A DNA stretch of 64,000 bases, from the NCBI GenBank assembly GCA_963789265.1, contig CAWBKB010000001.1, positions 2,527,716 through 2,591,715 on the forward strand, read 5' to 3'. Below the pieces are notes generated by a model, which ran no database searches, was not told the DNA's origin, and saw only the letters and a list, made by a program, of their open reading frames with translations. The DNA is from an uncultured delta proteobacterium. Its GTDB lineage: Bacteria; Desulfobacterota; Desulfomonilia; Desulfomonilales; Desulfomonilaceae. The position numbers and the translations under genes are program-made. Positions 37,827-59,688 of the stretch are shown here, in pieces. Position 1 is the first letter of the stretch. Each line of letters begins with the position of its first letter.

Positions 37827-38817
<991 letters not shown>

Positions 38818-42269: not shown

Positions 42270-43409
42270 TTACTCGAAGTATTTATCAAGCCCCATCAGG
42301 CTGTGTAATTTTTCAAAATTTGTCCTTTTCATTCGAAACATGACGGTTGCATAACTTAACCCCTCGAAGGGTAGAGCATATCGTTCAAGTCCCGGTTCCG
42401 TGCAGATGAGGCACTCTTGATGAGTGCCGGCGGTCCTACGAAACCGGGAGGCTTGATGCGATCGGACCAGGTTTTCAAAGGACTTGTCCTGAATGTTGCC
42501 AATGGAATAGTTGATAAGCGGGCAAGGATACACATCGCCGGTGCTTCGTATAAAGAAATAGTTGAATCCAGTAGTACAGGGTTTCTCCACACTCCCTGTT
42601 CGGAAATAATTCTGCAAGACGTTTCTGTGATAGCTCCAAGGAAATAGCTCCGTGGAATAGAAACTAGCGAGTTTGTCCAAATCTTTGGCACTGAATTGTA
42701 GTTCCTCACTATGATCGAGGTTGGCGTAGCGGACCTTCGTGAGAATCCGTGGAGAAATGATGGTGAATAATTCTCGATCTTGTGCAAACATTGCGATGGA
42801 AGTCAGGTGGTCGACATTTGCGGGAACGACGGTGGTTTTGAGACCGACCACAAGGTTTGGAAAAGCACGTCGCATTCTGCGGAGGCCGTCAATCGTTTGG
42901 AGAACCTTTGGCCAGGCACCCGATACGCCGCGGATTTTTTCATGGACCTCACCGATTGCATCGACGGCAACTGCAAACACCAAATCGATATGCCTACTAT
43001 TGAGGCGATCTGCCATGACGCCGGCCTTATTCAGTATGCGCCGCGTCAACAGACCGTTCGTTGTGACAGCCACGGTTCGCAATTTGGCGTACAGATCTGG
43101 TTTGTTGTGTGAAATCGCCTCCACGAGATTGACGATATCATCACTTAGGAACGGTTCGCCGCCGGTGATGTCAATTTCTCGGAGTTGCTTCAGCTCGCTT
43201 GACGCCAGGAGTTTCAACCACTCGGAAAGGGGAAGGTCTTTAACAGTGGCAGGAATCTTCCATATATTACACATCATGCATCGAGCGATGCACCGGTGAG
43301 TGATTTCCAAGGACAGCGCTTGAATTGGACAGCTCCCACCGGTTAGCCGGGAAATACGATAGCGGAGGCCGTTTCTTGCCAGCCTCAGCAAAAGTGGCAG
43401 GCTGCTCAT
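42270..43409 (-). CDS. Radical SAM protein with SPASM/Twitch-type C-terminus, last gene of the mft cluster
   Basis: CIARCMMC, ITGGEPF, TTNG, C-terminal CTTG...GDVYPC...CLIC. Confidence 0.88.
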   Translation of the reverse strand: MSSLPLLLRLARNGLRYRISRLTGGSCPIQALSLEITHRCIARCMMCNIWKIPATVKDLPLSEWLKLLASSELKQLREIDITGGEPFLSDDIVNLVEAISHNKPDLYAKLRTVAVTTNGLLTRRILNKAGVMADRLNSRHIDLVFAVAVDAIGEVHEKIRGVSGAWPKVLQTIDGLRRMRRAFPNLVVGLKTTVVPANVDHLTSIAMFAQDRELFTIISPRILTKVRYANLDHSEELQFSAKDLDKLASFYSTELFPWSYHRNVLQNYFRTGSVEKPCTTGFNYFFIRSTGDVYPCPLINYSIGNIQDKSFENLVRSHQASRFRRTAGTHQECLICTEPGLERYALPFEGLSYATVMFRMKRTNFEKLHSLMGLDKYFE

Positions 43410-43416
43410 GCGAACC

Positions 43417-44976
43417 TCACCGGGGGGAATCCGCAGCAAGAGATCTTTGATGTTTACGTTTTACCGACAGCCCCGGAAACACGGGAGAGAAGAACTTTTC
43501 CCTGAAACAGCCGAACCACACTCCTGACTGATACGAAAGCTGCTCCAAGGAAAAAATACCCAAAAAATACAGAATATTAATGTGTGGCTTTCGACTGGAA
43601 AACTCAATTGTTCCCACTCCTAAATGTGCCAGCCATATTGCCGCGGCAGCCACCGGAAAGGCAGGTGCCAGCAAGGTGGCGATAATAAGATAATATCGGG
43701 AGACAAACGAGCAAATCTGGTACATGAAGCTAAAATAGCTGCGAAACACCGCGACCAATACCTGCATCAACGGAACCGGGATTCCCATGTCGCGCACGCT
43801 TCGCCTTCTCATGACGGCGTCGCCCAGAGCCGTCACCGCGGCAAATGCGGCCGCCACAGGTTCTGCAAAAAGTGCCGTAATCAACAGTAACCAAAAGCAT
43901 ACCGCGGCAGGCAAGAGAGCGAACGTTTTTCTTCTTGCCGGATGAAGCGCCTGCAAGAGCGGTTCGCTTGTTCCGTATTCAAACCGTCTCATGCAAAAAG
44001 CTCTCAAGCGGTTTCTGTGCCGATGCAATACTCTTGCCGAGGGACGAAATTCGATCGAGCGGTTGCTGTCCATTATTCGCCAACAGAGGTCCACATCTTC
44101 GCCTACTTCCAGGGCTTCGTTGAATCCCCCCACCTTGAGAAAAAGCTCTCGACGTACCGCAAAATTGCAGGAGGGGAGGTAAAAGAATTTGCTTTTAAGG
44201 GTAGAATCGTTGCAGCGGATTTCAACCTGGAGCGGCGATTTAACCTTTTCGTAACGATCTAGAGGCTCTGTATCATCGTATGAATCTACCAATCCCCCCG
44301 CTGCTCCCACTTGCGGATCCTCGAAGACCGATGTAATTTCCAACAGCCACATTGAGTCCACGACACAATCTGAATCCACGAAGAGCAGTGTTTCGCCATC
44401 TGCTTGCCTTGCACCACGGTTGCGGCACGCTGACGCTCCCTGCCTCTTAGTCATGCGTTCCACCCTTACGGGAAAACGACTGACCACGTCGACGGTTTCA
44501 TCCTCGGAAGCATCGTCTACCACAACGATCTGCAGCTTCTCTTTGGGGTACGCGACCTCGAGAAGAGACTCGAGACATAGCTTGATTTCCGCGGCCCTGT
44601 TGCGGACCGGGATGACAACCGAAACAGTGGCCAGTGGCTCATGCACTGTTGCGCCGTAGCTCTCCAAAAAACCCATCTTTTCAAATCGATAAAGTAAGTG
44701 GTCCAACGAAGTCTCAGCGAGCGAAGGGGTGAGCTTAACCAGATTTTCGGCCGATCGAGGGCCCAAATCTTCTAGGTGGCGGAAGATCTCAGTGAGACCT
44801 GCTCCTAATCGAAGTGCCTTAAGCGGGTAGTTCCGCAGCAGGAATGAATGAGGGACTCTTTGTACCAGTCGTACACCTGTGGCGAGCTTGTAGGTTCGGG
44901 TGCCCAATCGAGCACTGATTGTGTCAATTTTCGACCTGTCGATATGGCCCTCCATGCCAAGACTTTCCGGTGACAT
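43417..44976 (-). CDS. mftF: Mycofactocin glycosyltransferase MftF (GT2)
   Basis: VVIPVRNR, VVDDAS, FVDSDC, RYE...SPL, YLPSCN, VGEDVDLCWR, YGTSE.LL..LHP; TAATG coupling with etfB. Confidence 0.88.
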   Translation of the reverse strand: MSPESLGMEGHIDRSKIDTISARLGTRTYKLATGVRLVQRVPHSFLLRNYPLKALRLGAGLTEIFRHLEDLGPRSAENLVKLTPSLAETSLDHLLYRFEKMGFLESYGATVHEPLATVSVVIPVRNRAAEIKLCLESLLEVAYPKEKLQIVVVDDASEDETVDVVSRFPVRVERMTKRQGASACRNRGARQADGETLLFVDSDCVVDSMWLLEITSVFEDPQVGAAGGLVDSYDDTEPLDRYEKVKSPLQVEIRCNDSTLKSKFFYLPSCNFAVRRELFLKVGGFNEALEVGEDVDLCWRIMDSNRSIEFRPSARVLHRHRNRLRAFCMRRFEYGTSEPLLQALHPARRKTFALLPAAVCFWLLLITALFAEPVAAAFAAVTALGDAVMRRRSVRDMGIPVPLMQVLVAVFRSYFSFMYQICSFVSRYYLIIATLLAPAFPVAAAAIWLAHLGVGTIEFSSRKPHINILYFLGIFSLEQLSYQSGVWFGCFREKFFSPVFPGLSVKRKHQRSLAADSPR

Positions 44977-45839
44977 TACAACAGACCTTTGTCCTTCAGG
45001 AATTGAATCATGCTGCGTGCAAGGTCGCCAGGTTCGGCTTCCAGCAGAGCCCCATCCTTTTTTGCCTCGTCCCGGGAGAGTAGAAGCCTGATGCGCTCCA
45101 CCGCGGGAAGTTCGCTGTCGGGAACGGGAATCCATTTCGGCCGCGGCTTGGGCTCTGTCACCCGACCTAGTCTCACCGCCGGGATGAGGTCGGCGCTTTC
45201 AAGAGACAGATCTTCGCCGTTCCAAGTAATAATCTCTTTATCGGCCGCTTTCAGCATGTCCCGATGGCTCGGATAGCGGGGCTCGCACAAGGTCCTTTCC
45301 ACGCCGACAACAGCAGGCAATGCGCATTCCAGTTCCTGTAACCGACCTCTGCCTAAACTACGCCGGACAAGCATTGTTTTTGAATTTGAGGACAGGTTCA
45401 ATCGCACAGTGGATGACAGATAGGGGTAATCAAGGTTGGAGGCCAAATAGCACCCCACTTGTCCTTGGGCCAGATCGAGAGAACGGGCCCCGCATAAGAC
45501 CAAATCAGCCGAAATTTTCCGAACGGCTTTGCTTAACACTAGAGCTGTCGTTCGGGCGTCTATAACACTCCATTCGGAATCATAAAGGTGAACCAGTTTG
45601 TCTCCGCCAATGGCCAGGGCCCGTCGAGCTTCTTTGTCGAAGAATTCCGGACCGGCCGACAGGATCCACACTTCGCCTCCTACGGCGTCTTTCAACTGTA
45701 CGGCTCTTTCAAGGGCCACCTCGTCCAGCGGGTTATTCAGGCGAACAATGTCATGGGCGGCAACAAAGTTTTTGTCAGGACAGAGTCCACTCCTGGCATA
45801 AACAAAGCTGATCTGCTTCAAACAAACTGCGATCCTCAT
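44976..45839 (-). CDS. etfB: Electron transfer flavoprotein beta subunit (mycofactocin-associated)
   Basis: IAVCLKQ, NPLDEVALE.A, ALAIG.D, DLVLCG.RS.D, LPAVV, PRYP. Confidence 0.9.
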   Translation of the reverse strand: MRIAVCLKQISFVYARSGLCPDKNFVAAHDIVRLNNPLDEVALERAVQLKDAVGGEVWILSAGPEFFDKEARRALAIGGDKLVHLYDSEWSVIDARTTALVLSKAVRKISADLVLCGARSLDLAQGQVGCYLASNLDYPYLSSTVRLNLSSNSKTMLVRRSLGRGRLQELECALPAVVGVERTLCEPRYPSHRDMLKAADKEIITWNGEDLSLESADLIPAVRLGRVTEPKPRPKWIPVPDSELPAVERIRLLLSRDEAKKDGALLEAEPGDLARSMIQFLKDKGLL

Positions 45840-45959
45840 AGGAATGATCTCAACGCCTCCCGCACGAATTTGATTCCAAACAATGAATCGTCCCTTTACT
45901 CCAGCATGGGAGCGCCTTAGACGTCAGATTTCTGATACTCACTCGGAAAGCTACAGGGA

Positions 45960-46125: not shown

Positions 46126-46138
46126 CCTCCTTGCACGA

Positions 46139-48709
46139 TCAACGGGTGACCATCTCCACAATCTCGATCACGTCTAAAACCGTTTGCGGTCCAGGACTCA
46201 CCTCGCCTAGGCCATCCTCTATCATTGCCACACAATAAGGACAGGACGTGCTGACCACCTCCGCGGCAGTTTCAGCGCATTGTTTCGCCCTGAGCACGTT
46301 GATTCTACTACCAGTTTCATGAAGCCACATTCGGCCGCCACCTGCTCCGCAGCAAAAAGTGCTGTCCGCTGTGTTGGGCATTTCTTTCAGCCGAGAGTCG
46401 CATACAAGCCCGAGTATTGCCCTTGGGAAATCCGCGAGCCTGTTGACGCGGGAAAGGTAGCACGGATCGTGATATGTCAACTGCTTGCTGAACTGCCTTT
46501 TGGGCCTCAAGAGACCGTTTTGCAGGAGCGATGCAGTCCATTCAACAGCGTGGATTACCCTGAAGTCAGCCCCGAAATCGGGATATTCGTGAGCAAGAGT
46601 GTTGAAGCAATGAGGGCACAGAGTGACAATCCTCTTGACTCCTTGAACTTTGAAGCGCTCCATGTTTCTCTGAACCAATTCCTGAAAAAGAGCTTCCTGC
46701 CCGAGTCGCCGAACGGGGTCGCCACAGCAATTTTCTTGTTCGCCGAGAATCTCCATCCGTTGTCCGGCCCTATTTGCAAGCGCGATGAAAGCCTTTGCCA
46801 CCTCGCGAGCCCGAGGATGAAAAGAAGCCTGACAACCCACCCAGAAAAGAAAATCCTCTTTATCGCCGCCCTCCACAAAATTCTTTTCTAGGCTTTTTGC
46901 CCATATTGTCCTTGAAGCACGACCATATCCAAAAGGATCGCCGTAAACGTCGATGTTTCTCAGGAGTTTTATCGCTTCGGGCGGGACTTTGCCCTGTTCC
47001 AGCACCAATCCGCGGCGTAAATTCATCAGCTTGTTCACATGTTCTACCCCCACGGGGCAAGAACTCTCACACGCGTGACAGCTTGTACACGCCCATATTT
47101 CCTCTTCGGAGATATATTGTGACACAAGCTCCTGACTTCGCGATGTGCTGCCTTTTCGCCTCGTCTCCAGCGCACAGTTACCGATCTCTTGAATTATCTT
47201 CATGGGGTTCAGGGGCTTTTGAGAAGCGTACGCCGGGCAAGAGTCGCGGCATTGGCCGCAACTAACACATGCCTCCGTGTCCAGGAGGTCTTTCCAGGTC
47301 AGATCGTTTGCGGTCGTTATGCCCAGCGGCTGCTCCGAATTCGTACAGCATGGTACCAGTTTCCCGGCAGGTCCCAGCCTGTGAAAAAACAAGTTGAGCG
47401 GCGCAGTAAAAATGTGGCGCAGCGGACTGAACGGCATAGCGGCTAACAGGGCAAAAACCAGGCCGAAGTGAACATACCAGGCTATGGCGATCGCCGCTGG
47501 GGACGGGGGCAAGACGGCAGCCAGTGCCCAACCGACCGGATGGCGCCAGATATCTGATTCCGGAGCGATGGAGATTCGGAATCCTTCGGTCAGGAAGCCC
47601 GTGAGCACTATGAGAACCAGTATGACGAGCACCGTCAATCCAGCAAGTCCTGTTGAAGGAGATGCGTCTAAAGGCTGAAACCGTCTCCGTAGGGCATAGA
47701 CAACCCCGCCCAGCAGAGCGAGCCCGACAATCTCCAGGAACAGAGATGCAAACCCGGCGGCAAGTGCGGGAACAGGAGGATCGAATTGCAGAGCCAGTAC
47801 GATCAAGCCCGGTATCAGTACACCCAAGAATATAAAATAATGACTGAATCCAACGCTAGGACGGCGAAAGACCCTTCGCTGGCCTATGGTGGCCCACCAC
47901 AGAGCAACGAGTCTCCGCCCGGGTTTGTCCCACCGTCTGAGGGATCTGCCTGACATCCAGAAAAGGAGGCGATTCACCCACCCCCAAAAAAATACCACGA
48001 TACAGCATCCCAGAAACAGCGGGTATGCCAACGTCCAAATCGTTGCGGAATCGGATGCAGTCTGCCATCTGGTGGGGTGCGGGGCCCCTATGAGAAAGCG
48101 GGAGCCTGGGCTGGAATTGTGACATTTCGTACATAAAACCCCGGCTGGCGGACTCGATTCTCGATGAGCGACGTGCTTGAAGTGACAGGAAAGGCACTGA
48201 TATCTCGAATACGGTCTGCTGGCGTCTGCCTTTCCGTGGGCTGTGATGCGAAAAACCCACAGAGACTTCAACAAGGACCCGGCGCCTATCTGTTCCGGGT
48301 GGCAGCGGCCGCACGTTGCAGCGATCCGCTTAGGATTGAGCGTCGAGAGGGGGTTTTCCGGAGGGAGCACGTTGTGCCCGCCGTGACAGACTGCACATGA
48401 AACCGGTTGGCCCATTCTCCTCGGGTGAGAGCTGACCTCGGAATGGCAGTCACCACAGACGGCGGCCGAAACGGCTTGGCTCTTCTGATGCGCCTGAGTG
48501 GCCGCAGTCGGATGACACGACAAGCAAGAAACATTTCGGCCATGAACCGAGGACCGGAGGGTGTCGATGTTAATTTCAAACTTACTCTTGCCGCTCCCGG
48601 CCAGATGACACGCGAGGCATTCTTGATCGTTTCTGGCGGCATAGGACACCAGGCAACAGAACTCTACGGCCATCACGACACACGCCAAGCACAAGCATCT
48701 CCAGTTCAT
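46139..48709 (-). CDS. Fusion: heptaheme cytochrome c + NarI-like cytochrome b membrane domain + 2x[4Fe-4S] + two CCG domains (FadF/HdrD/EMO-like)
   Basis: Signal-like N-terminus; CLACH, CLSCH, CGDCH, CAVCH, CGRCH, CLSCH, CTKCH; about 6 TM helices with His; CVSCGQCRDSCP, CTSCHACESSCP; NCCG..CPHC, HDPC..FCCGAGGG..CPYC. Confidence 0.88.
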   Translation of the reverse strand: MNWRCLCLACVVMAVEFCCLVSYAARNDQECLACHLAGSGKSKFEINIDTLRSSVHGRNVSCLSCHPTAATQAHQKSQAVSAAVCGDCHSEVSSHPRRMGQPVSCAVCHGGHNVLPPENPLSTLNPKRIAATCGRCHPEQIGAGSLLKSLWVFRITAHGKADASRPYSRYQCLSCHFKHVAHRESSPPAGVLCTKCHNSSPGSRFLIGAPHPTRWQTASDSATIWTLAYPLFLGCCIVVFFWGWVNRLLFWMSGRSLRRWDKPGRRLVALWWATIGQRRVFRRPSVGFSHYFIFLGVLIPGLIVLALQFDPPVPALAAGFASLFLEIVGLALLGGVVYALRRRFQPLDASPSTGLAGLTVLVILVLIVLTGFLTEGFRISIAPESDIWRHPVGWALAAVLPPSPAAIAIAWYVHFGLVFALLAAMPFSPLRHIFTAPLNLFFHRLGPAGKLVPCCTNSEQPLGITTANDLTWKDLLDTEACVSCGQCRDSCPAYASQKPLNPMKIIQEIGNCALETRRKGSTSRSQELVSQYISEEEIWACTSCHACESSCPVGVEHVNKLMNLRRGLVLEQGKVPPEAIKLLRNIDVYGDPFGYGRASRTIWAKSLEKNFVEGGDKEDFLFWVGCQASFHPRAREVAKAFIALANRAGQRMEILGEQENCCGDPVRRLGQEALFQELVQRNMERFKVQGVKRIVTLCPHCFNTLAHEYPDFGADFRVIHAVEWTASLLQNGLLRPKRQFSKQLTYHDPCYLSRVNRLADFPRAILGLVCDSRLKEMPNTADSTFCCGAGGGRMWLHETGSRINVLRAKQCAETAAEVVSTSCPYCVAMIEDGLGEVSPGPQTVLDVIEIVEMVTR

Positions 48710-49755
48710 GAGCCTTGCCTCTCAAATTCTTGGGCGTCGTGCTTGTCCTGTTCGAGCAGCCTTAGCAGTTGAACTAGAACATCTCTTCCGTATCCGACCA
48801 GGCCCAAATCGGAAAACCGGAATATCCTAGCCTGAGGATCTTTGTTTATTGCCACTATAGTCTGCGCTTCTTCTATCCCGGTTGTGAACTCGTTTGCTCC
48901 GGAAATTCCCCATGCGAATAGAAGTCTAGGGGAAACCGTTGTGCCGGTCTGTCCGATTTGTCGCTCAAACGGTAACAGACCCGAGTCCACCACCGGTCTG
49001 GTCCCTGCCATAACGCCGCGAAAGATGTTTCTTAGTTCGTGCAGTTGTGGCAAGTCCTCGGGGGCCATTCCCCGCCCGAATGCAATGACTGTTTCCGCCT
49101 CCCCAAGAGTCACAGCTTCGGGATCTTCCTGAATGACTCGCAGCAATTTCACTCGATCCGATTTCGGAGCAGATAAGGGATCAATCTGAACCAACTGTGC
49201 GCTTCGATCGGGCTCCGGTCGAAAGCGGCTTAGAGCCTCGGGGTCCCAGCATAGCACCGAGACGCCTAGGCCGGACAGAAATACGTGCTGGTGCAGTCTG
49301 CCTCCTTGAATTGACTGCACGGCCCGGATGCCGGCTGTCGGATCCCATTGAGCGTCGGTGCAGTTCGAGACCAGAGGCGAATCGAGCTCTACAGCTACAC
49401 GAGGAGAGAGATCGGCTGCCCATCCACTTCCTGCGAATGCGACCACCGCGACATTGACTTGCCGCGCCAGTCCGGCCACGGTTTCTGCCACACATTCAGG
49501 CAGGCTGGAGCTTGGGTCAGAGGGGCAACGATAAACAACGCTTGCACCGAATTGCCCCAAAACCGAAGCGGCATTGTTCTCGGGGCCAAATATCAGGGCC
49601 TTCACCCCGTCCGCAGCGTGCGGAAATAACGGGTAATTTCGAGAGTGCGCCACTAATGCCACCGAGGCAGGGGTTACCTGTCCCGCTTGGGTCTCGCACA
49701 CGACAAGAACGCCTTTGGCTTCCGGCGACGTAGCCTCCGGCATGTTCTCAGCCAT
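48706..49755 (-). CDS. etfA: Electron transfer flavoprotein alpha subunit
   Basis: FGRGM, GTRPVVD.G, QIGQTG..VSP, GISGA, IVAINKDP.A.IF. Confidence 0.9.
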   Translation of the reverse strand: MAENMPEATSPEAKGVLVVCETQAGQVTPASVALVAHSRNYPLFPHAADGVKALIFGPENNAASVLGQFGASVVYRCPSDPSSSLPECVAETVAGLARQVNVAVVAFAGSGWAADLSPRVAVELDSPLVSNCTDAQWDPTAGIRAVQSIQGGRLHQHVFLSGLGVSVLCWDPEALSRFRPEPDRSAQLVQIDPLSAPKSDRVKLLRVIQEDPEAVTLGEAETVIAFGRGMAPEDLPQLHELRNIFRGVMAGTRPVVDSGLLPFERQIGQTGTTVSPRLLFAWGISGANEFTTGIEEAQTIVAINKDPQARIFRFSDLGLVGYGRDVLVQLLRLLEQDKHDAQEFERQGS

Positions 49756-51716: not shown

Positions 51717-51742
51717 CTAATGGTCTCCGTGGTTTGGCTGTT

Positions 51743-53695
51743 TCAGATAGCACGTGCAATCGTGTAGCCATCCATAATGGCTGTGTCGATTTTTCGAGGT
51801 GCAACGCAGTCACCGACTTTATAGAGGGCCGGTACTCTGCCTTTCAGTTCTCGGTAGAGCCTGTCTTCGCACACATTGCCGAGAGCCAAGACGATGGTGT
51901 CATAATCTGCTGTTTCAGAAATCTGTTCCGTGAACTTGTCTGCCACTACGGCGCGAGTACCCCGAATCTCCAGGACCACTGTATCAGGGATAAACCGGAC
52001 GCCCTTCTTGAGCAATCTTTGTCGGATCAAGAACAGGTCACCGATCGGAGCCAGATCCATGCCCACGAAAGGTTCGCCGGTCATGATGTCCACATTTCTA
52101 TTCCTGTCTGCCAGGAACTCCGCGGTGGAAAGAGCTCTGTAATGCCCGTCTTCATCCACGAGAAGAACTTTTTGGCCGATCTGATAGGTGCCTTTGAGCA
52201 CATCCCACACATTCAAAACCGTTGGTGGGCCGTATTTTCCTCTGACAGGGCGCGGATCAGGATACGATCCGGTCGCCACAATAACCACGTCAGGAGACAA
52301 GTCTATTACCGTAGCTGCGTCGAGAGGAGATCGAGTCAAAACAGTGACCCGCCATTTCTCCAGTTGTCTGGTCAGATTCTCGATTACGCCCCAGATTTCA
52401 CTTCGGCCCGGACCTATCCTTGCCAGTCGCAGTTGGCCACCGGGCTCATTTTCGCTCTCGTATACGGTAACATGATGCCCTCGTTTGGCTGCTGTAAGGG
52501 CCGACTCGAGGCCCGCGGGCCCGGCGCCGACGACAATGACCCGTTTGCTCGAAGTTCCAGTAGAGCTGTGCTCGCCGAGACCGAAAGTCTCTCTTCCTGC
52601 TCGCGGATTCAGAATGCAGGAGATCGGTTTGATTTGGGCGACCTTGCCCACACAGTTCTGATTGTCCGAGACGCAGTAAACGATCTCGTCAATTTTGCCT
52701 TCATACAATTTCCGCGGAAGCCAAGGATCGCAGATCAAGGGTCTGACCCAACCTACAAGATCCGCCTTGCCCTGCTTCAGCGCTTCCTCAACCCGCTCCG
52801 GAATGGGCATCCTGTTTCCGGCGAAAACAGGCACGGAAACAGCCTGCTTCAGCGTGGACACCATGTCCAAAGTCAGGGCCATAGGGTGGTGCATGGATGC
52901 CCTGGCCTGATGGAAGTTGTAATAGGTTCCGACAGTCGTGTTGAAAAAATCAACCAAGCCGAGAGATTCCAATTCCCGGGCAGCATTGAGAGAGTCCTCG
53001 AGCGTCAGCGCATTCCAGAACATTTCGTCCAGACAAAGCCTGATTCCCACGGGAAAGCCCGTTCCTACCGCTTGTTTCACACCCTGGAGCACTTCCTCAG
53101 TGAGCTTCATTCTTCCCTGGAAATTGACGCCGTAGCGGTCTTGCCGGTGATTGGTGAGCGGCGAGAGAAACTGCCGCAGGAGACTATCTTCGCCGACGTC
53201 TATCTCTAACCCGTCAAATCCTGCCTGTTCGAGGGAGGTTGCTGCTCGTGAAAATGACGCAACGAGCTCCTCGAAATCGCTGTTTTCCATGGCTTTGCAC
53301 ATCTCGCCATGGGCTATGTCGGCCGTAGGCTCCGGCCCCCAGATAGGCATCCTGCTTATTACGCCTTGACTTTGAAACCCGCGGTGAGTGAGCTGTGCGA
53401 AGACCAGTGAATTCTGCTCATGAATCCGCTCTGCCAGCTTTTCGAGCCGCGGTGTCTCACTACCTCGATGCAGGTGAATCATTTTCTCGTAAGGTCGATC
53501 GTTCGGGTGGATGCTGAATTCACCGACGATTACGAGGCCGCAACCGCCTTTGGCCCTTTCAGCATAATAGGCGATCAGCGCATCGCTAATTGTTCCTTTT
53601 CCTGCGAGATTGGTTCGATGGGCGCAAAAGGCAACCCGGTTGCGGACGCGAGCACGTCCAAGATTCAAAGGCGACAACAGCGTCTCAAACCGCAT
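51743..53695 (-). CDS. FadH/OYE-family flavin-FeS oxidoreductase 1 (mycofactocin system)
   Basis: NRVAFCAHRTNL, SIHPNDRPYE, SLLRQFLSPLTN.R.D.YG, RPLICDP, VGAGPAGLESA; paralog of the neighbour. Confidence 0.9.
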   Translation of the reverse strand: MRFETLLSPLNLGRARVRNRVAFCAHRTNLAGKGTISDALIAYYAERAKGGCGLVIVGEFSIHPNDRPYEKMIHLHRGSETPRLEKLAERIHEQNSLVFAQLTHRGFQSQGVISRMPIWGPEPTADIAHGEMCKAMENSDFEELVASFSRAATSLEQAGFDGLEIDVGEDSLLRQFLSPLTNHRQDRYGVNFQGRMKLTEEVLQGVKQAVGTGFPVGIRLCLDEMFWNALTLEDSLNAARELESLGLVDFFNTTVGTYYNFHQARASMHHPMALTLDMVSTLKQAVSVPVFAGNRMPIPERVEEALKQGKADLVGWVRPLICDPWLPRKLYEGKIDEIVYCVSDNQNCVGKVAQIKPISCILNPRAGRETFGLGEHSSTGTSSKRVIVVGAGPAGLESALTAAKRGHHVTVYESENEPGGQLRLARIGPGRSEIWGVIENLTRQLEKWRVTVLTRSPLDAATVIDLSPDVVIVATGSYPDPRPVRGKYGPPTVLNVWDVLKGTYQIGQKVLLVDEDGHYRALSTAEFLADRNRNVDIMTGEPFVGMDLAPIGDLFLIRQRLLKKGVRFIPDTVVLEIRGTRAVVADKFTEQISETADYDTIVLALGNVCEDRLYRELKGRVPALYKVGDCVAPRKIDTAIMDGYTIARAI

Positions 53696-54725
53696 GCTCT
53701 GCGCCCCGCACATTTTGTGAACTTTGGCATTGCACCAGGCATTCCGGATCGGCCAACCCCAATTCGCCGTGGCCATGGTAAGCCACGGCCGGACAGCCGC
53801 CCCGGCATGTCTCAAACCGGAAGCAGGTCTCGCATGACTTGACGTTCATCCCGCGGAATGTGGCAAAAATGTTCGAACGCAGCCAGATTTCGCGGAACTT
53901 GAGATCGCGTACATTACCGGCGAGGAATTCTGGCTCTTGCAAGAACGCACATGGATAGACGGAACCATCCGGAGAGAGGCAACAGGTCAGCTTTGCGGCT
54001 CCGCAGATATCAAGGCCCATTCTGCGCCTCTTTTCGGATGTCAGGCTGAAGAAAGAGTCGCCGGTCAACACCTGGCAGTGTTGATTCAGCCAGTGAGAAA
54101 AACCCTCGAGCTGATCTGCGTCAGGCGCCATCTCCTCCTGGCAATCTTTGCCTCTGCCGGAGGGACGAAATCTGCTGATTCTCAAGTTCGTACCCATGTC
54201 TCGGGCCATAGCATTGAGCGTGTCTATTTGAGGAAAGCTCCATCTGGTCAGGACAGTGTTTATGCTGAACTTGATCCCCTGCATAGCCAGGTTTTCTACG
54301 GCCTTACGTATCTGCCGGTACGTCCCTCTTCCGCGGATCCGATCGTTTGTGGCCTCGTCCGCCCCATCCAAGCTGACCTGCAAGTAGAGACCTTCTATTT
54401 CTGCGAGCTCCCGGCACGTTTCCTTGTCGAAGAAGGTCCCGTTGGAGCTGACGCATGAAACTATGCCAAGCCGTTCCGCAGCACGAAGGATTTGAAAGAT
54501 GTCGGGCCGTAGAAAAGGTTCGCCGCCTCCAAAATTAATTTGGAAGACCTGGAGTTTCGCAAGTTCACTCAACACATTGAGGGCTTCTTGCGTGGAAAGC
54601 TCATTCCGCAAGGGCTCGCCCGCATTCGACAGACAGTGTCTGCACTTCAGATTGCACCGCAGTGAAACTTCCCACGTCACGTTGACGGGCGCGGAGAGTC
54701 CTTCACGTGCCAGCCTTGCAAGCAT
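53685..54725 (-). CDS. mftC: Mycofactocin radical SAM maturase MftC
   Basis: APVNVTWE, CNLKCRHCLS, FQINFGGGEP, QVSLDGA, SRFRPSGRG, VLTGDSFF, CGA.KL.C...P.G.VYPCAF, C..C.....CRGGCPA. Confidence 0.95.
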   Translation of the reverse strand: MLARLAREGLSAPVNVTWEVSLRCNLKCRHCLSNAGEPLRNELSTQEALNVLSELAKLQVFQINFGGGEPFLRPDIFQILRAAERLGIVSCVSSNGTFFDKETCRELAEIEGLYLQVSLDGADEATNDRIRGRGTYRQIRKAVENLAMQGIKFSINTVLTRWSFPQIDTLNAMARDMGTNLRISRFRPSGRGKDCQEEMAPDADQLEGFSHWLNQHCQVLTGDSFFSLTSEKRRRMGLDICGAAKLTCCLSPDGSVYPCAFLQEPEFLAGNVRDLKFREIWLRSNIFATFRGMNVKSCETCFRFETCRGGCPAVAYHGHGELGLADPECLVQCQSSQNVRGAEHAV

Positions 54726-55002
54726 GCACTACTCCTTTTCTTTCCAAACGTTCCAGCGCCCTTTCCAGAGCCTTGACAATCTCCCGGCTTACGTTTCTTA
54801 TTTTACACCATCGTGCCGGGCTTTGTCTTGATGCAAAGAATTGCGGAGTAAGCAAGTCGCCCGATGATAGGAAATAGAGGCGCGGCCCATTGCGATCGTA
54901 AAAAAGGAGTCCCGAGCGCTCGTTTCTCACCCGCACATTAGGGGCTAGCACATAAGCCGGTGCGGGTCCCTCCAGCGACTCAGTACACACCGCAAATTCC
55001 AT
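54703..55002 (-). CDS. mftB: Mycofactocin RRE chaperone MftB (start uncertain, overlaps mftA end)
   Basis: Y.LAPNVRVRNE..GLLFY....PRLYFL; C-terminal ALERL..KG; lies between mftA and mftC. Confidence 0.85.
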   Translation of the reverse strand: MEFAVCTESLEGPAPAYVLAPNVRVRNERSGLLFYDRNGPRLYFLSSGDLLTPQFFASRQSPARWCKIRNVSREIVKALERALERLERKGVVHACKAGT

Positions 55003-55120
55003 CTATGGCTACCTCTTCGATGTCAATTTCGGTGAAGGTCAGATCCTCCTTTTCTGCCTGGCCATCGGCACGTTCATCTGTATTCGTATGCTCAGGTATG
55101 GTTTGTTCGGTTTGTTCCAT
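54980..55120 (-). CDS. mftA: Mycofactocin precursor peptide MftA (46 aa)
   Basis: Manual translation MEQTEQTIPEHTNTDERADGQAEKEDLTFTEIDIEEVAIDGICGVY*; SD AGAGG; canonical IDGxCGVY terminus. Confidence 0.96.
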   Translation of the reverse strand: MEQTEQTIPEHTNTDERADGQAEKEDLTFTEIDIEEVAIDGICGVY

Positions 55121-55441
55121 TGCGGACCTCTTTACTAATCAGTTAATCAGATGAGCCGCCCTTTATTCGGAGCCGGCTCTGGCCACAATCTTTCCCTCTT
55201 CTTGAGGGAAAGACCGTTCGCCAGCTTCTGAACTTGCTACAAATGGCGGGGACGCAGGATACGAACCAATTCCTCCGGTGTAGTTTAGGCTACGCAAGAT
55301 GTCCGGCCTGAAGTAAAGCTTACCGGCTTCCAGGTTTATCCGGAGCACCTTCAGCCTCGCCACGCCATTCAGCACCTGGGATTCCCGGATAAAAAGCTCT
55401 GTTTCCGTCGGCTGCCCTGAACCGCCGGACCTGCTGGAAGC

Positions 55442-56653
55442 TCAGATACAGGATCGCATAATCTCCTTGATCTGTTCAGGGGTGATGTCGCGAGGATTGG
55501 CTTCCCGCGAGAGATCGTTACTCGCCCATTTAGCCGTGTGCTCGATGTCGGCTTCGGAAAAATCAAAGGTGCTCAGCGGGACCTGTGGAATGCCCACATC
55601 ATTGCGGAGCCGTTCGATCTCTTCCAGGGTTTTCTCCGCGGCGTGGACCGGGTGCATGTGCCCCACATCCAGGCCCATGGCCTGACCGATTTCCTTGAAA
55701 CGTTCCGGGACGGCCACCACGTTGAAGCGTTCCACCGGAATCATCATGATCGCGTTTGTGTACCCATGATGAAGATCCTTGATTACTGACAACATGTGTG
55801 CGGTTCCGTGAACCATACCCATGCCTCCACCCATGTTGTAGGCCATGGAGGCAATGAACTGTGCCCAGGCCATGTTTTCAATGGCCACATCGTTGAACGG
55901 GTTAGCGTAGGCCTGGCGAATATTCTCGCTAAGGAGCTTGATGGCACGGAGGCCGACAGCATGCACGTGAGGCATATTGAACCGGCCGATGGTCGGCTCC
56001 ATAGCGTGACAGAATGCATCCATGCCCGCCCAGGCAATCATGTTCGGGGGCTGTAGCCTCATGAAGAGGGGATCGTTAATACCCACTGAGGGCCCCACTC
56101 CAGGGACCACGAGGATTAGCTTGTAGACCCACTCTACGTCATTGATGATTGCAAAGGCCGTACCCTCCGCCCCGGTGCCCGTGGTCGTATTGATTGCCAC
56201 GTGGGGGATTTGCACAATCTTGTATGTGGGTATGCGGGTAGTGTAATGCGGATCAAGGAAAGCGCAAAACTGCCTGAGGTCGGTGTCCGGTCCTTCATTG
56301 GTCATCATAATGCGAATGCCCTTGCCCGCGTCGTGGGCGCTCCCACCCCCGACTGAGACAATGCCGTCACACCCTGCCTCCTGGTAGACCTTGGCCCCGG
56401 CCTTGCATTCGTAGTCCTTGGGATTAGAGGTAACCCCGTCGAAAAGTGTCACAGCCACGCCGGCCGCCTTGAGTACTCCTTCGACCTCTTCAACGATGCC
56501 TGTCCCTCTCAGCCCGGTGGTGACCAGTAGGGCGTGCTTAATGGCGTAGGCCTGGCATTCTACGCCTGCCATTGTATGCGCACCCCAGCCCACAATCCCG
56601 CGTGAGTGTTGGTGTACATAAAGCAGTGGGAATTGCTTGCGTTCGAAGTTCAT
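55442..56653 (-). CDS. Group III (Fe-containing) alcohol dehydrogenase, Mno/Mdo nicotinoprotein-like
   Basis: TTGLRGTGIV, SNPKDY, GGGSAHDAGKG.RI, HVAINTT.GTG.E, HHG..NAI resemble NDMA-dependent methanol dehydrogenases; directly upstream of mftA. Confidence 0.8.
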   Translation of the reverse strand: MNFERKQFPLLYVHQHSRGIVGWGAHTMAGVECQAYAIKHALLVTTGLRGTGIVEEVEGVLKAAGVAVTLFDGVTSNPKDYECKAGAKVYQEAGCDGIVSVGGGSAHDAGKGIRIMMTNEGPDTDLRQFCAFLDPHYTTRIPTYKIVQIPHVAINTTTGTGAEGTAFAIINDVEWVYKLILVVPGVGPSVGINDPLFMRLQPPNMIAWAGMDAFCHAMEPTIGRFNMPHVHAVGLRAIKLLSENIRQAYANPFNDVAIENMAWAQFIASMAYNMGGGMGMVHGTAHMLSVIKDLHHGYTNAIMMIPVERFNVVAVPERFKEIGQAMGLDVGHMHPVHAAEKTLEEIERLRNDVGIPQVPLSTFDFSEADIEHTAKWASNDLSREANPRDITPEQIKEIMRSCI

Positions 56654-56706
56654 CGTATTACTCCTTTTCTGACAGAGGCGCGGCCAGTACCTCTTGTCTC
56701 GAGCCT

Positions 56707-58188
56707 TCACTTGAGGATCTGGTACCAGGGTTTGACAGCTTGGCCTGTCAGATCCAGATAGATATGTTTAGTAACTGTGTATTCTTCCAAAACCATTGTG
56801 GACAGATCCTTGCCCCATCCGGACTCCTTGCAACCTCCCCACGGCGTCTCGCAGAATAATATGAGATGCTCGTTTACCCACACTGTGCCGGCTTTGATCT
56901 GGGAAGCTGCCACGAGCCCCTGCGGAATATTCTTGGTCCATACCGAAGCGCACAAGCCATAGGGCGTGTCATTGGTAAGTGCAACCGCTTCTTCCAAAGA
57001 ACTGATCTTCACTAATCCAACTACAGGACCAAATATTTCCGATCTCATGAATTCCATGTCATTGGTACAGTTGCCGAAAACAGTGGGCGTAACGAAATAT
57101 CCATTCCGAGTCTCCGGTGTATTCGGACGCTCTCCTCCGCAAAGCAGTTTTGCCCCACTTTTCTTTGCAGATTCCACGAAGGACTCGATTTTGTCCCTGT
57201 GGGCCCGGGACGCGACCGGCCCCAAAACTGTAGCGGGGTCCATCGGATCGCCATAAGGTAGAGTCGAAGCGGCTTTCGCTAGTTTTTCTGCAAATTCGTC
57301 ATAGATAGATTCGTGGATATAGAACCGGCTTGCCGCAGCACATACTTGACCGCTGTTGAAGAAGGCTCCGAAAACAGCCCCCTCCACTGCAGAATCAACA
57401 TCTGCATCCGGCAGAACCACAAAGGAATTCTTTCCACCCAGCTCAAGTCCCACCTGTTTGACGCTGTCACTTGCGATGCGCATTATGCGCTTGCCGGTCG
57501 CCGTATCGCCTGTGAAACCTATCTTGGCCACTTTCGGGTGTCGTACGAGAGCTTCTCCGACTATGTCTCCGGCGCCGGTAAGGACGTTTACCGTGCCCGC
57601 GGGCGCTCCAGCTTCTACAAAGATCTCTGCAAGCTTGAGAGTGGTCAAGGGTGCAACGGACGGAGGCTTTACGATGCACGTGTTGCCGGTAACGAGGGCG
57701 GCTCCCAGTTTCCAAACCACCATCAGAGCAGGGAAGTTCCACGGAGTTATCAAACCGACCACTCCGTGCGGCTCACGCACAGTCATCGATAGACACCATG
57801 GACCGACAGGCAAAGTCTCGCCGGTCAATGACCGTGCAATACCTGCGAAATACTCCAATTGTTCAGCGCACATGGGCACATCGAAATTCATCGTTTTACG
57901 TATAGGGGACCCCTGCTCTGCAGTTTCGAGCATTGCAAGGGCCTCCTGCTGTTCCATGATCAGTTTGGAAGCTTTGTAAAGTATCTTAGAGCGATCCGTC
58001 ATCGTGCGGGCTGCCCAGCCCGGCGCTGCTGCCTCTGCAGCCTGGACGGCAGCGTCCACATCGGCAACTCCACATTTGGGGACCGTACCAACCACCTCTC
58101 CATTCGCGGGGTTGGTGACTTCGAAAGTTTCACCGCTTGCGGAGGATACCCATTGACCTCCGATGAGAACCTTGTAATCCTCTGCCAT
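56707..58188 (-). CDS. NAD(P)-dependent aldehyde dehydrogenase
   Basis: ITPWNFP, FTGDT.TG, LELGGKN, FFNSGQVC, EIFGPV, PWGG.KESG.G. Confidence 0.95.
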   Translation of the reverse strand: MAEDYKVLIGGQWVSSASGETFEVTNPANGEVVGTVPKCGVADVDAAVQAAEAAAPGWAARTMTDRSKILYKASKLIMEQQEALAMLETAEQGSPIRKTMNFDVPMCAEQLEYFAGIARSLTGETLPVGPWCLSMTVREPHGVVGLITPWNFPALMVVWKLGAALVTGNTCIVKPPSVAPLTTLKLAEIFVEAGAPAGTVNVLTGAGDIVGEALVRHPKVAKIGFTGDTATGKRIMRIASDSVKQVGLELGGKNSFVVLPDADVDSAVEGAVFGAFFNSGQVCAAASRFYIHESIYDEFAEKLAKAASTLPYGDPMDPATVLGPVASRAHRDKIESFVESAKKSGAKLLCGGERPNTPETRNGYFVTPTVFGNCTNDMEFMRSEIFGPVVGLVKISSLEEAVALTNDTPYGLCASVWTKNIPQGLVAASQIKAGTVWVNEHLILFCETPWGGCKESGWGKDLSTMVLEEYTVTKHIYLDLTGQAVKPWYQILK

Positions 58189-59638: not shown

Positions 59639-59688
59639 GCCGTCTCCTTTCCACATTGTGGACCATGCTTAAGAACGAATAGTCGACC

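Follow-up and report, generated by a model that had tools for sequence, protein, structure and literature searches.

The cluster of 12 genes at positions 42270..58188 of the 64-kb stretch of DNA analysed here (the window) probably encodes, with a likelihood that we put at roughly 55%, a self-contained, O2-independent mycofactocin redox system of a Desulfomonilaceae-like anaerobe, in which electrons would flow from an alcohol dehydrogenase (ADH) to mycofactocin, and from there via a pair of OYE-type flavoenzymes and an electron-transfer flavoprotein (ETF) to the membrane. All 12 genes of this mft locus lie on the minus strand, and their order agrees with that given by an earlier, sequence-only reading of the same DNA. 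Also borne out was the proposal made there that a pair of OYE/FadH flavoenzymes, an ETF and a membrane redox module are physically and evolutionarily tied to the mft cluster.

The gene for the 46-aa precursor peptide, mftA (54980..55120; TIGR03969 score 29.8, cut-off 25), is followed by those for the peptide chaperone, mftB (54703..55002; TIGR03967, 48.8, cut-off 33), and the radical SAM/SPASM maturase, mftC (53685..54725; TIGR03962, 332.5, cut-off 265). The glycosyltransferase gene mftF (43417..44976; TIGR03965, 350.2, cut-off 280) is found further downstream, next to the gene of a second radical SAM/SPASM protein of 379 aa, rSAM2 (42270..43409; PF04055 and PF13186). The mftF ORF extends to 45135, with the TIGR03965 model beginning at residue 86 of this long ORF; the likely ATG is at 44976, in 1-nt overlap with the etfB stop codon. 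MftA, MftB, MftC, MftF and one of the OYEs (OYEb) reach the curated NCBIfam cut-offs, and OYEa, EtfA and EtfB lie below the curated mft-specific ones. No NCBIfam family was found at cut-off for rSAM2, which has 1568 relatives at E <= 1e-10 out of 6699 scored. When junction lengths are computed from likely start codons, overlaps of 1-23 nt are observed at mftA/mftB, mftB/mftC, mftC/OYEa, OYEb/etfA, etfA/fusion and etfB/mftF, short gaps of 7-53 nt at ALDH/ADH, OYEa/OYEb and mftF/rSAM2, and long gaps of 321 nt ahead of mftA and 299 nt ahead of etfB. The earlier description of the genes as largely overlapping is therefore true inside blocks only and fails across the two long gaps, which count against the putative co-transcription of the locus.

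The two flavoenzymes with FMN, Fe-S and FAD sites, OYEa (51743..53695; ORF extending to 53815, likely ATG at 53695) and its paralogue OYEb (49755..51716), belong to the FadH/OYE family and are 45% identical, with TIGR03997 scores of 712.3 and 857.9, respectively (cut-off 793.15). Their designation as OYE1 and OYE2 was inexact: with the OYE_1 profile the two proteins score only 347 and 395 bits (cut-off 627.9), OYE_1 identity was rejected for either, and both are OYE_2-like. The duplication is independent of the OYE1/OYE2 split in Streptomyces. Natural OYE1-OYE2 fusion proteins (P0364, 1334 aa; P0365, 1456 aa) suggest that such paralogues work together, and OYEa and OYEb probably form a heterodimer. 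The nearest solved relatives of both are 2-naphthoyl-CoA reductase (NCR; 6qkg for OYEa), FadH, trimethylamine dehydrogenase (TMADH) and histamine dehydrogenase. FadH and NCR have pyridine nucleotides or CoA esters as substrates, and TMADH and histamine dehydrogenase are amine dehydrogenases, TMADH passing single electrons via an Fe-S cluster to ETF. The best matches are reductases (NCR, 276-298 bits), so that the OYEs might act on another substrate. The GxGxxG motif of the NADPH site of FadH is absent from all 12 mft-linked OYEs examined, and TMADH likewise does not have this loop. The cluster motif of OYEa reads C-x2-D-x3-C-x11-C, the second Fe-S ligand being Asp instead of Cys in both paralogues. 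The ETF genes flank the membrane module: etfA, for the large subunit (48706..49755; PF00766 and PF01012), has NF038209 mft_etfA as its top NCBIfam family (120.5, cut-off 240), and etfB, for the small subunit (44976..45839; PF01012), has TIGR04503 mft_etfB (101.2, cut-off 200). The top PDB relative of EtfB is 1o94_C, the ETF beta subunit partnering TMADH.

The 856-aa fusion protein encoded between etfA and etfB combines cytochrome c7/paired CXXCH, NarI, 4Fe-4S dicluster and two CCG domains. Residues 1-215 (48065..48709) comprise a signal peptide and a periplasmic heptaheme cytochrome c domain (PF14522, 30.5 bits), residues ~216-450 (47360..48064) a NarI-like membrane domain (PF02665, 30.9 bits) with five helices predicted by hydropathy and NarI 1q16_C as PDB match, and residues ~451-856 (46139..47359) a cytoplasmic part with an HdrC-like 2x[4Fe-4S] domain (PF13183) and an HdrB-like domain with two CCG motifs (PF02754, 108.7 bits over two stretches). 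Residues 265-843 match 9ojn_A, an EMO-type ETF:menaquinone oxidoreductase, with an E value of 7.6e-87; the predicted membrane redox module thus has cytoplasmic and membrane parts homologous to a solved ETF:menaquinone oxidoreductase. His290, His414 and His432 are invariant in 10/10 fused forms and kept in 45-46 of 46 unfused relatives. Of the Fe-S cysteines (8 + 10), sixteen occur in every one of the 46 unfused relatives; C662 is present in 40 of them and C701 in 43. The seven CXXCH motifs and seven distal His of the heptaheme domain are invariant in 10/10 full-length fused homologues, at 31-40% domain identity, and by this pattern of conservation the heme domain is under selection. Three of the nine other fused homologues share an apparent source with an MftC or rSAM2 match, which is a proxy and not observed synteny. 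According to the available part of a preprint (10.64898/2026.08.18.745454), EMO transfers electrons from ETF to (methyl)menaquinone, its known donors being acyl-CoA dehydrogenases acting through ETF.

Upstream of mftA lie the genes of putative client enzymes. The iron-type (family III) ADH (55442..56653; PF00465 and PF25137) has an ORF extending to 56710, with the ATG at 56653, preceded by AAGGAG, as the likely start. Its top PDB relatives are DhaT 3bfj and the NAD-dependent methanol dehydrogenase 8zrl. The enzyme had been called Mno-like, an inexact label: Mno/Mdo orthology was ruled out by its TIGR04266 score (251.7, cut-off 625), and the protein shares 29% identity with an Fe-ADH from a mycobacterial plasmid. 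Nevertheless, it carries TSNPKDYEC, matching the SIMBAL motif TSNPKDYE tied to mft-linked Fe-ADHs by Haft 2011, and is a candidate mycofactocin-dependent nicotinoprotein. The adjacent aldehyde dehydrogenase (ALDH; 493 aa, 56707..58188; PF00171, 585 bits) has aminobutyraldehyde and betaine-aldehyde dehydrogenases as top NCBIfam families, neither reaching cut-off. Beyond it, also on the minus strand, genes for a Liv-type ABC transporter (58418..62991) encode two ATPases (PF00005), two permeases (PF02653) and a substrate-binding protein (PF13458) whose top solved relative, matched with a score of only 55 bits, binds an amino acid. This transporter, a possible substrate uptake system, belongs to the client part of the window, outside the conserved core.

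Conservation of the core was assessed in other genomes. A genome scan yielded 32 stretches matching a pattern, of which one locus, L001 in a Desulfomonilaceae MAG, was confirmed. It keeps the order mftA-B-C-OYEa-OYEb-etfA-fusion-etfB-mftF-rSAM2 at 54-89% identity (OYEb 89%, mftC 84%, rSAM2 69%). While the core is shared, the neighbouring dehydrogenases differ: upstream of the core L001 has a Zn-ADH (top family TIGR03989, 329, cut-off 440) and an AOR fragment, its ALDH (72% identical) lies downstream on the opposite strand, and the transporter has no counterpart beside the core. In both loci mftA is adjoined by a dehydrogenase of a class linked to mycofactocin by Haft 2011, an Fe-ADH in the window and a Zn-ADH in L001. 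A survey of 11 annotated plasmid mft loci, with an incomplete gene table and 12-14 kb inspected on either side, revealed seven with OYE and ETF genes and without annotated MftD or MftG, and four with MftD and without OYE/ETF. The seven represent two independent lineages only (five Streptomyces, two haloarchaea), and have the order mftC (or mftF) ... OYE(s)-etfA-[FAD oxidoreductase + 4Fe-4S ferredoxin]-etfB. Since the core order recurs in L001 and, with another ETF-acceptor gene, in these seven loci, the gene arrangement is not due to chance.

A point absent from the earlier reading is that MftD and MftE are missing: neither these nor MftG were detected in the window or L001 (4 MftD, 6 MftE and 2 MftG queries; E < 0.01), although they could be encoded elsewhere in the genome, outside the 64-kb window of a contig of about 2.59 Mb, and there is no obvious peptidase among the cluster genes. 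The MftA C-terminus is IDGICGVY, and the core IDG[IM]CGVY is invariant in 8/8 aligned MftA from both OYE/ETF and MftD locus types, so that an MftD-like oxidation is still required. The view of the OYEs as mere re-oxidases is therefore incomplete, and they may also make the redox-active cofactor. MftD's step is described as aerobic in the available part of PMC8406134.

We propose the following scheme. From family membership, MftA, MftB, MftC and MftF would produce the Val-Tyr-derived cofactor. The Fe-ADH, judging from its motif and position, would oxidise an imported alcohol and pass electrons via tightly bound NAD to mycofactocin. At their FMN, OYEa/OYEb would oxidise the cofactor at its carbon 3, thereby re-oxidising mycofactocinol, the task of MftG in mycobacteria. 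They would probably also catalyse the initial oxidative deamination of the amine precursor, for which other clusters have the O2-dependent MftD. Single electrons would leave the OYEs via their Fe-S cluster to ETF, as in trimethylamine dehydrogenase. By homology to solved and characterised EMOs, the fusion protein would re-oxidise ETF at its cytoplasmic non-cubane Fe-S domain and deliver the electrons to menaquinone, or via heme b to its heptaheme domain in the periplasm and the cytochrome pool there.

Alternatively, the OYE-ETF-membrane module could be purely biosynthetic, replacing MftD independently of O2 in the conversion of the amine precursor AHDP to premycofactocin and disposing of the electrons released, with no part in cofactor recycling. 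The complementarity of MftD and OYE/ETF in 11/11 plasmid loci, the window and L001, the amine dehydrogenases among the OYE relatives and the aerobic nature of the MftD step all speak for this. We nevertheless consider it unlikely: the recycler MftG is absent too, from 7/7 OYE/ETF loci, the window and L001, the occurrence of two paralogues, or of a fused pair, points to two activities, and a dedicated ETF and membrane quinone/cytochrome reductase are heavy equipment for a reaction occurring once per cofactor molecule. Electrons could also run the other way, from periplasmic cytochromes or menaquinol via the fusion protein and ETF to the OYEs, which would reduce mycofactocin or an enoate or aromatic substrate, the ADH acting as an aldehyde reductase. 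In sulfate reducers, electrons move inwards through the related Hmc and Tmc complexes. The best solved OYE relatives are reductases, and EMO has been shown running a reverse redox loop (available part of preprint 10.64898/2026.08.18.745454). Yet in three phyla the OYEs directly follow mftC regardless of which client enzymes lie nearby, the uptake transporter, ADH and ALDH read as a catabolic, oxidative route, and premycofactocin (E0' -255 mV) accepts electrons less readily than menaquinone (-74 mV; both values from the accessible text of PMC11778925), which makes such a reversal improbable.

A connection between mycofactocin and the NAD(P) pool through the OYEs, or their use of a CoA ester, with ETF and the EMO-like protein serving an unrelated acyl-CoA dehydrogenase through incidental co-regulation, would accord with the substrates of FadH and NCR and with the known donors of EMO. 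This appears highly improbable given that the glycine-rich NAD(P)H loop occurs in 0/12 mft-linked OYEs, that no Pfam match to acyl-CoA dehydrogenase was found in the 13 ORFs of the cluster or in 50 ORFs chosen by eye on its flanks, and that in Desulfomonilaceae, Streptomyces and haloarchaea alike mft genes and the etfA-X-etfB block are interleaved. Finally, the two long intergenic gaps, and nothing else, favour a set of neighbouring genes without common function; such an assemblage is scarcely credible in view of the order kept in L001, the architecture repeated in seven plasmid loci and the curated NCBIfam family names that exist for the mft-OYE/ETF association.

The redox chain from ADH to the membrane proposed here must be seen against what is known of mycofactocin. 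The bioinformatic link to OYE and ETF, recognised in the sequence-only reading, is already encoded in those family names, and our literature search found no biochemical study of an OYE/ETF-type mycofactocin cluster. The further claim of a respiratory route not yet described does not hold, as the available part of PMC11778925 already describes such a route via MftG in mycobacteria; it also states that ~25% of MftC genomes are without MftG and calls its replacement an open question. What is novel is thus a different, putative MftG-independent route, and its new part is the membrane fusion. As to gene order, rSAM2 occupies the position held by mftE in Streptomyces, and the slot between etfA and etfB, filled by FixCX-like genes in Streptomyces and haloarchaea, is taken here by an EMO homologue with a heptaheme domain.

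Twelve minus-strand genes between positions 42270 and 58188, identified from NCBIfam and Pfam scores in bits relative to curated cut-offs, make up the mycofactocin cluster, and the co-directional row proposed from the sequence alone is thereby upheld. In the order of transcription, they encode an aldehyde dehydrogenase (ALDH, 56707–58188; PF00171, 585 bits), an iron-type alcohol dehydrogenase (Fe-ADH, 55442–56653; PF00465 and PF25137), MftA (54980–55120; TIGR03969, 29.8 against a cut-off of 25, with the C-terminus IDGICGVY), MftB (54703–55002; TIGR03967, 48.8 against 33), MftC (53685–54725; TIGR03962, 332.5 against 265), two paralogous FadH/OYE-type flavoenzymes termed OYEa (51743–53695; TIGR03997, 712.3, below the cut-off of 793.15) and OYEb (49755–51716; 857.9, above it), EtfA (48706–49755; top family mft_etfA, NF038209, 120.5 below 240), an 856-aa fusion protein (46139–48709; cytochrome c, NarI, 4Fe-4S and CCG domains), EtfB (44976–45839; top family mft_etfB, TIGR04503, 101.2 below 200), MftF (43417–44976; TIGR03965, 350.2 against 280) and a second radical SAM/SPASM protein, rSAM2 (42270–43409), without a specific family. 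With likely start codons, neighbouring genes overlap by 1–23 nt or are separated by 7–53 nt, except for gaps of 321 nt 5′ of mftA and 299 nt 5′ of etfB. The fusion gene is placed between etfA and etfB and overlaps etfA by 4 nt. Two further ORFs, of 70 aa (55163–55375) and 106 aa (41969–42289), belong to no family and gave no tblastn match in L001, a related locus from a Desulfomonilaceae MAG, and were treated as non-genes. A Liv-type ABC transporter (58418–62991, minus strand) lies upstream of the cluster at a distance of 229 nt, and beyond it, at the window edge, is the C-terminal part of an activator with a Fis-type HTH (63755–64000).

Not all of the labels assigned in the sequence-only reading survived comparison with the mycofactocin families. 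MftA, MftB, MftC, MftF and, for OYEb, OYE_2 were recovered at cut-off, while OYE_1 and the mycofactocin-type EtfA and EtfB remained below it. The two flavoenzymes are therefore not an OYE1/OYE2 pair, as both are OYE_2-like and score just 347.4 and 394.7 against the OYE_1 family (TIGR03996, cut-off 627.9). The description of the alcohol dehydrogenase as “Mno-like” also had to be abandoned: its TIGR04266 score of 251.7 is far from the cut-off of 625 and near-equal to its lactaldehyde reductase score (253.3), and it is 29% identical to the Fe-ADH of a mycobacterial (M. chubuense) plasmid. This protein contains the sequence TSNPKDYEC, matching over the NAD site the motif TSNPKDYE, a stretch that marks the Fe-ADHs of mycofactocin genomes in the account of Haft 2011 (PMC3023750). 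A search for clues to the substrate yielded only weak and generic similarities for both the ADH and the binding protein of the ABC transporter. Three Fe-ADH paralogues are found in the window (2503–3666, 39761–40984 and 55442–56653).

The proteins that complete and recycle the cofactor in canonical systems, i.e. the premycofactocin synthase MftD, the peptidase MftE and the mycofactocinol dehydrogenase MftG, appear to be missing here. Pfam searches of 13 cluster and 50 flanking ORFs of the window revealed neither a creatininase (MftE) nor an FMN-dependent alpha-hydroxy-acid dehydrogenase (MftD). Tblastn with 4 MftD, 6 MftE and 2 MftG queries, all proteins of annotated plasmid mft loci, returned nothing below an E-value of 0.01 in the window or L001, the best value for the four MftD queries being 0.087; these absences apply to the 64-kb window of a contig of ~2.59 Mb, and copies may exist elsewhere in the genome. 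MftD, MftE and the regulator MftR were described as present in most, not all, mycofactocin species (Haft 2011, PMC3023750). The place of MftE 3′ of mftF is occupied by rSAM2, yet this is a radical SAM enzyme and not a peptidase.

Plasmid-borne mft loci provide a broader context for this gene complement. An MftC query retrieved 12 plasmid records at E ≤ 1e-50, of which the 11 annotated ones were compared; the twelfth, CP077967, is unannotated and stands outside the comparison, and two OYE matches were seen in it. Seven of the 11 loci (five from Streptomyces, one each from Haloterrigena and Halolamina) are of an OYE/ETF type, with mftA-B-C, one or two OYEs, etfA, a FixCX-like pair (a FAD oxidoreductase of ~440 aa and a 4Fe-4S ferredoxin of ~100 aa), etfB, mftF and mftE, and no annotated MftD or MftG within 12–14 kb on each side. 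The other four (Streptomyces NBC_00080, Thermomicrobium, M. chubuense and Tsukamurella) are canonical: all have MftD, and no OYE or ETF was found in the neighbourhoods inspected. MftD and the combination of OYE with ETF are thus complementary in 11 of 11 plasmid loci, a pattern that the window and L001 fit, with the reservation that the seven OYE/ETF loci represent two independent lineages only and that the comparison covers neighbourhoods in an incomplete PLSDB gene table. The order mftC, OYE(s), etfA, ETF acceptor, etfB is found in the window and L001 as in the plasmid loci. The MftA core IDG[IM]CGVY is invariant in all eight sequences aligned, from both types of locus, and therefore the same precursor is expected to be made in both, and an oxidation of the MftD type still to be needed.

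The sequence-only reading took these genes to belong together, and within the Desulfobacterota this was borne out by one related MAG locus. A scan of genome contigs with the fusion protein gave 32 pattern matches, of which a single locus, L001, was confirmed. Its core has the order found in the window, with identities of 54% (mftA), 71% (mftB), 84% (mftC), 79% (OYEa), 89% (OYEb), 72% (etfA), 78% (fusion), 82% (etfB), 70% (mftF) and 69% (rSAM2). No homologue of the window Fe-ADH was found in L001, which features upstream of the core a Zn-ADH with the mycofactocin-linked TIGR03989 as its top family (329, below 440) as well as a partial aldehyde:ferredoxin oxidoreductase, and downstream, on the opposite strand, an ALDH. 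Because L001 keeps the core order and not the dehydrogenases, the cofactor genes and the OYE/ETF/membrane module appear to form a conserved core to which client dehydrogenases are exchangeable, as would be expected for a cofactor system with its own recycling machinery. Alignment of the region 5′ of mftA with L001 did not extend beyond chance. In the source annotation of L001, the fusion (10001–12565) is represented by a protein of 611 aa (P0003) with the heptaheme domain left out; the frame is open throughout, and tblastn aligns residues 1–856 of the window fusion to it at 78% identity.

The closest solved relatives of OYEa and OYEb are 2-naphthoyl-CoA reductase (NCR, 276–298 bits), 2,4-dienoyl-CoA reductase, trimethylamine dehydrogenase (TMADH) and histamine dehydrogenase. 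At the NADPH site, the segment IIGCGGIG of FadH aligns with IVDMDGHHGC in OYEb and ILNADTYFMA in TMADH, and the GxGxxG motif of FadH is found in none of 12 mft-linked OYEs (from the window, L001, three Streptomyces pairs and two haloarchaea). Like TMADH and histamine dehydrogenase (1o94), the window OYEs are three-domain proteins with FMN and Fe-S, whose dinucleotide domain is vestigial and has no NADPH loop. The acceptor of these dehydrogenases is ETF, which TMADH supplies through its Fe-S cluster, and their chemistry, from amine to carbonyl, is what the MftD step needs. The match of the window OYEs to them nevertheless amounts to only 184–213 bits. The residue aligned to Cys30 of 1djn_A, which carries the covalent FMN in TMADH, is Leu. 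The second Cys of the Fe-S motif (C-x2-C-x2-C in NCR, FadH and TMADH) is replaced by Asp in all four OYEa and OYEb sequences of the window and L001 (residue 346 of OYEb and residue 384 of the long ORF of OYEa, window 49755–53695; L001 4895–8955), which suggests an Asp-ligated or a 3Fe cluster. This ligand is Cys in 8 of 8 Streptomyces and haloarchaeal plasmid OYEs; among the best 150 representatives it is Asp in 8 and Cys in 88. In a quick tree of 59 rows (SH-aLRT support, midpoint root), OYEa, OYEb and three Asp-bearing representatives formed one clade with a support of 99. Streptomyces OYE1 and OYE2 fell outside it, which argues for an independent duplication in the lineage of OYEa and OYEb. 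Natural single-chain fusions of OYE1-like and OYE2-like proteins (P0364, 1334 aa; P0365, 1456 aa) argue that paired mft OYE paralogues work as one unit.

The best candidate for the acceptor of the electrons is the fusion protein, of which residues 265–843 match the solved ETF:(methyl)menaquinone oxidoreductase (EMO) of M. smegmatis (9ojn_A, E 7.6e-87), with a weaker match to NarI. According to its description, EMO transfers electrons from ETF to (methyl)menaquinone and consists of one polypeptide, in which a heme b domain of five helices that resembles NarI and has its N-terminus in the periplasm is followed by HdrC-like two-cubane and HdrB-like non-cubane (CCG) domains (10.64898/2026.08.18.745454). 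The corresponding architecture is evident in the fusion (PF02665 for NarI, PF13183 and two copies of PF02754), which retains 8 cubane Cys, 10 Cys of the CCG domains and 3 membrane His; all but two of the 18 Cys and all but one of the His recur in each of 46 unfused relatives, the exceptions being C662 (found in 40), C701 (in 43) and H290 (in 45). By analogy with EMO, the fusion would thus act as ETF acceptor and reduce (methyl)menaquinone. Its N-terminus is different: behind a signal peptide, ~190 residues contain 7 CXXCH motifs and another 7 His. None of these varies in the 10 full-length homologues compared, even though the heme domain is just 31–40% identical between them. As five helices are predicted after this signal-peptide-led domain, heme c is expected to be periplasmic and the Fe-S domains cytoplasmic. 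Such fusions are few among the best relatives: 888 relatives were obtained at E ≤ 1e-10 among 8000 scored, and the best 120 of these 888 include nine full-length fusions besides that of the window, the other 110 (497–721 aa, 56–79% coverage) being without the N-terminal stretch that contains the heme domain. The CXXCH array was absent in the 27 of these 110 that were checked (P0003, P0004, P0014–P0029; P0014–P0059). Three of the nine other fused homologues appear to be co-located with MftC (P0005/P0247, P0008/P0263) or rSAM2 (P0007/P0185), as judged by a common source record and an equal length of the longest contig, a proxy for synteny. As for ETF itself, EtfA has bifurcating ETFs as its nearest relatives (5ol2, 6fah, 7qh2) and EtfB the non-bifurcating beta subunit that partners TMADH (1o94_C, 91.5 bits); mft_etfA and mft_etfB are the top-scoring families of the two subunits, though under cut-off.

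By their family membership, MftABC and MftF are predicted to make a mycofactocin-type cofactor, and the same criterion places an ETF and an EMO-type protein in the cluster. In the mechanism proposed here, the ADH would reduce the cofactor, the OYE pair would reoxidise it at FMN and pass electrons via Fe-S to ETF, ETF would reduce the non-cubane clusters of the fusion, and either menaquinone or the hemes on the periplasmic side would take the electrons up. Given the potentials reported for PMFT/PMFTH2 (−255 mV) and menaquinone (−74 mV; PMC11778925), this chain would be energetically allowed. Since MftD has been described to act aerobically (PMC8406134) and since, in the loci compared, MftD and MftG are absent wherever OYE and ETF are present, both oxidations at one carbon are most likely carried out by the OYE pair, from amine to keto once and from hydroxy to keto repeatedly. 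It is tempting to speculate further that OYEa and OYEb form a bifunctional, O2-independent enzyme with ETF as acceptor, which generates the redox-active keto-lactam in place of MftD and recycles mycofactocinol in place of MftG, and that the heptaheme-EMO protein carries the electrons to periplasmic or extracellular acceptors with no need for the quinone pool, a reading to which, taken as a whole, we give roughly one chance in five. If true, mycofactocin-dependent alcohol oxidation in anaerobic Desulfobacterota would feed directly into electron transfer outside the cytoplasm or into interspecies H2/formate production.

Among the remaining features of the cluster, rSAM2 belongs to a large family (1568 matches at E ≤ 1e-10 among 6699 scored), and its homologues, as well as a protein atlas, yielded only generic “radical SAM/SPASM” names. 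By the source-record and contig-length proxy, at least four further pairs (P0143/P0297, P0176/P0345, P0230/P0304, P0177/P0313) suggest that rSAM2 homologues and MftC lie on one contig, and the family may be regularly associated with mft clusters of the anaerobe type. Between 44000 and 63900, neither sigma-70-like promoters (5 against 10.4 expected) nor terminator-like sites (18 against 20.8 expected) were enriched, and the sigma-54 pattern was not above chance in the whole window (31 matches against 32.5 expected). Two sigma-54-like sites (63064–63079 and 63187–63202) are found 5′ of the transporter operon and beside the Fis-type HTH; the first would be suitably placed for this operon and is a lead only. 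The region upstream of the transporter (62992–63754) also contains several perfect palindromes, e.g. at 63500–63523. In the 299 nt that separate the fusion gene from etfB (45840–46138), the predicted RNA fold is unusually stable (−101.1 kcal/mol, z −3.12). This spacer matches nothing in Rfam and is not repeated elsewhere in the window; at the same junction, L001 has only ~100 nt. Local palindromes excepted, intergenic regions had no repeats elsewhere in the window.

Outside the cluster, the only Rfam match in the window is a tRNA gene (26386–26458, 69.4 bits), followed by a phage-type integrase (26469–27611) and ORFs without Pfam domains up to 29732, so that 26386–29732 may be an integrated element. 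Other features include an MqsR/MqsA toxin-antitoxin pair (19075–19899; PF15723, 115.6 bits, and PF15731, 145.4 bits), LUD-domain and 4Fe-4S proteins of the LutB/LutC lactate-utilisation type (6501–8449), and genes for aldo/keto reductase, carboxymuconolactone decarboxylase, cupin, SDR and Fe-ADH proteins with a divergent AraC regulator (31055–42048), some of which look truncated, e.g. an aldo/keto reductase (38155–38814) spanning profile positions 2–177 of 291.

Mycofactocin biology has so far been worked out almost wholly in aerobic Actinobacteria. About 25% of genomes with MftC have no MftG, whose replacement was posed as a question in the paper on MftG, the main text of which mentions no FadH, OYE, ETF, TIGR03996 or TIGR03997 (PMC11778925). 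Together with ETF and an ETF:quinone oxidoreductase, the OYE pair is a concrete candidate for the re-oxidase of such genomes, and the OYE/ETF module is also a candidate for making the redox-active cofactor in strict anaerobes. That OYE and ETF genes are tied to mft clusters is already known from NCBIfam family names, and, as the sequence-only reading had supposed, no biochemical study of this link was found; no paper studying the association emerged from the literature searched, reviews in subscription journals being outside its scope, Haft 2011 stood alone for anaerobes, and the phrase “mycofactocin-associated electron transfer” did not occur. The claim of a respiratory route not yet described would hold for the proposed MftG-free OYE/ETF route, unstudied in the literature found, and not for respiration as such, since MftG links mycofactocin to respiration in mycobacteria (PMC11778925). 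What is new is the make-up of this cluster, with an EMO-cytochrome fusion as putative ETF acceptor, no MftE, a further rSAM and presumably an Asp-type Fe-S cluster in the OYEs. Desulfobacterota metagenomes are rich in MftC relatives (5209 at E ≤ 1e-40 among 8000 scored), so that the route could be of importance to the anaerobic turnover of alcohols and aldehydes.

Among known systems, the cluster resembles the OYE/ETF-type clusters delineated by NCBIfam (TIGR03996, TIGR03997, TIGR04503, NF038209), which likewise comprise mftA-B-C, OYE(s), etfA, an ETF acceptor, etfB and mftF and, on plasmids, lack MftD and MftG. It differs from them in its OYEs, both OYE_2-like, independently duplicated and with Asp in the Fe-S motif, and in ETF subunits that fall below the mft cut-offs (120.5 against 240 and 101.2 against 200). 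Unlike the plasmid clusters of Streptomyces and haloarchaea, which keep MftE, it has no MftE and features an extra rSAM after mftF. The slot between etfA and etfB, filled by FixCX-like genes in those plasmid clusters, is taken in the window by the heptaheme-EMO fusion, a natural replacement experiment which suggests that selection in this slot acts on the role of “ETF acceptor”. With the canonical system of Mycobacteria (mftA-F with mftG and mftR), the window has in common an MftA with IDGxCGVY, MftB, MftC and MftF above cut-off, and an adjoining dehydrogenase of a cofactor-linked class; it lacks MftD, MftE, MftR and the GMC protein MftG that provides the link to respiration, and instead has two OYEs, ETF, a membrane module and a second rSAM.

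The fusion protein itself widens the newly described EMO family. Like the EMOs of Syntrophus aciditrophicus and Mycolicibacterium smegmatis, it unites NarI-like, HdrC-like and HdrB-like parts in one chain with conserved ligands and is encoded beside etfAB; in contrast to them, it is extended at the N-terminus by a signal peptide and a heptaheme cytochrome c part (~215 aa), and it sits in a mycofactocin cluster instead of a beta-oxidation context. The main text of the EMO preprint mentions neither cytochrome c nor mycofactocin (10.64898/2026.08.18.745454). The fusion also bears some likeness to the membrane complexes of sulfate reducers, although its NCBIfam scores for HmcF (85 bits), TmcB (80) and DsrK (58) are all far under the cut-offs. 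The Tmc, Hmc and DsrMKJOP complexes bring together a multiheme cytochrome c in the periplasm, a cytochrome b of the NarI type and, in the cytoplasm, a CCG protein resembling HdrD. In the window, the equivalent parts are found in a single polypeptide, the cytoplasmic partner would be ETF, and the electrons presumably flow outward.
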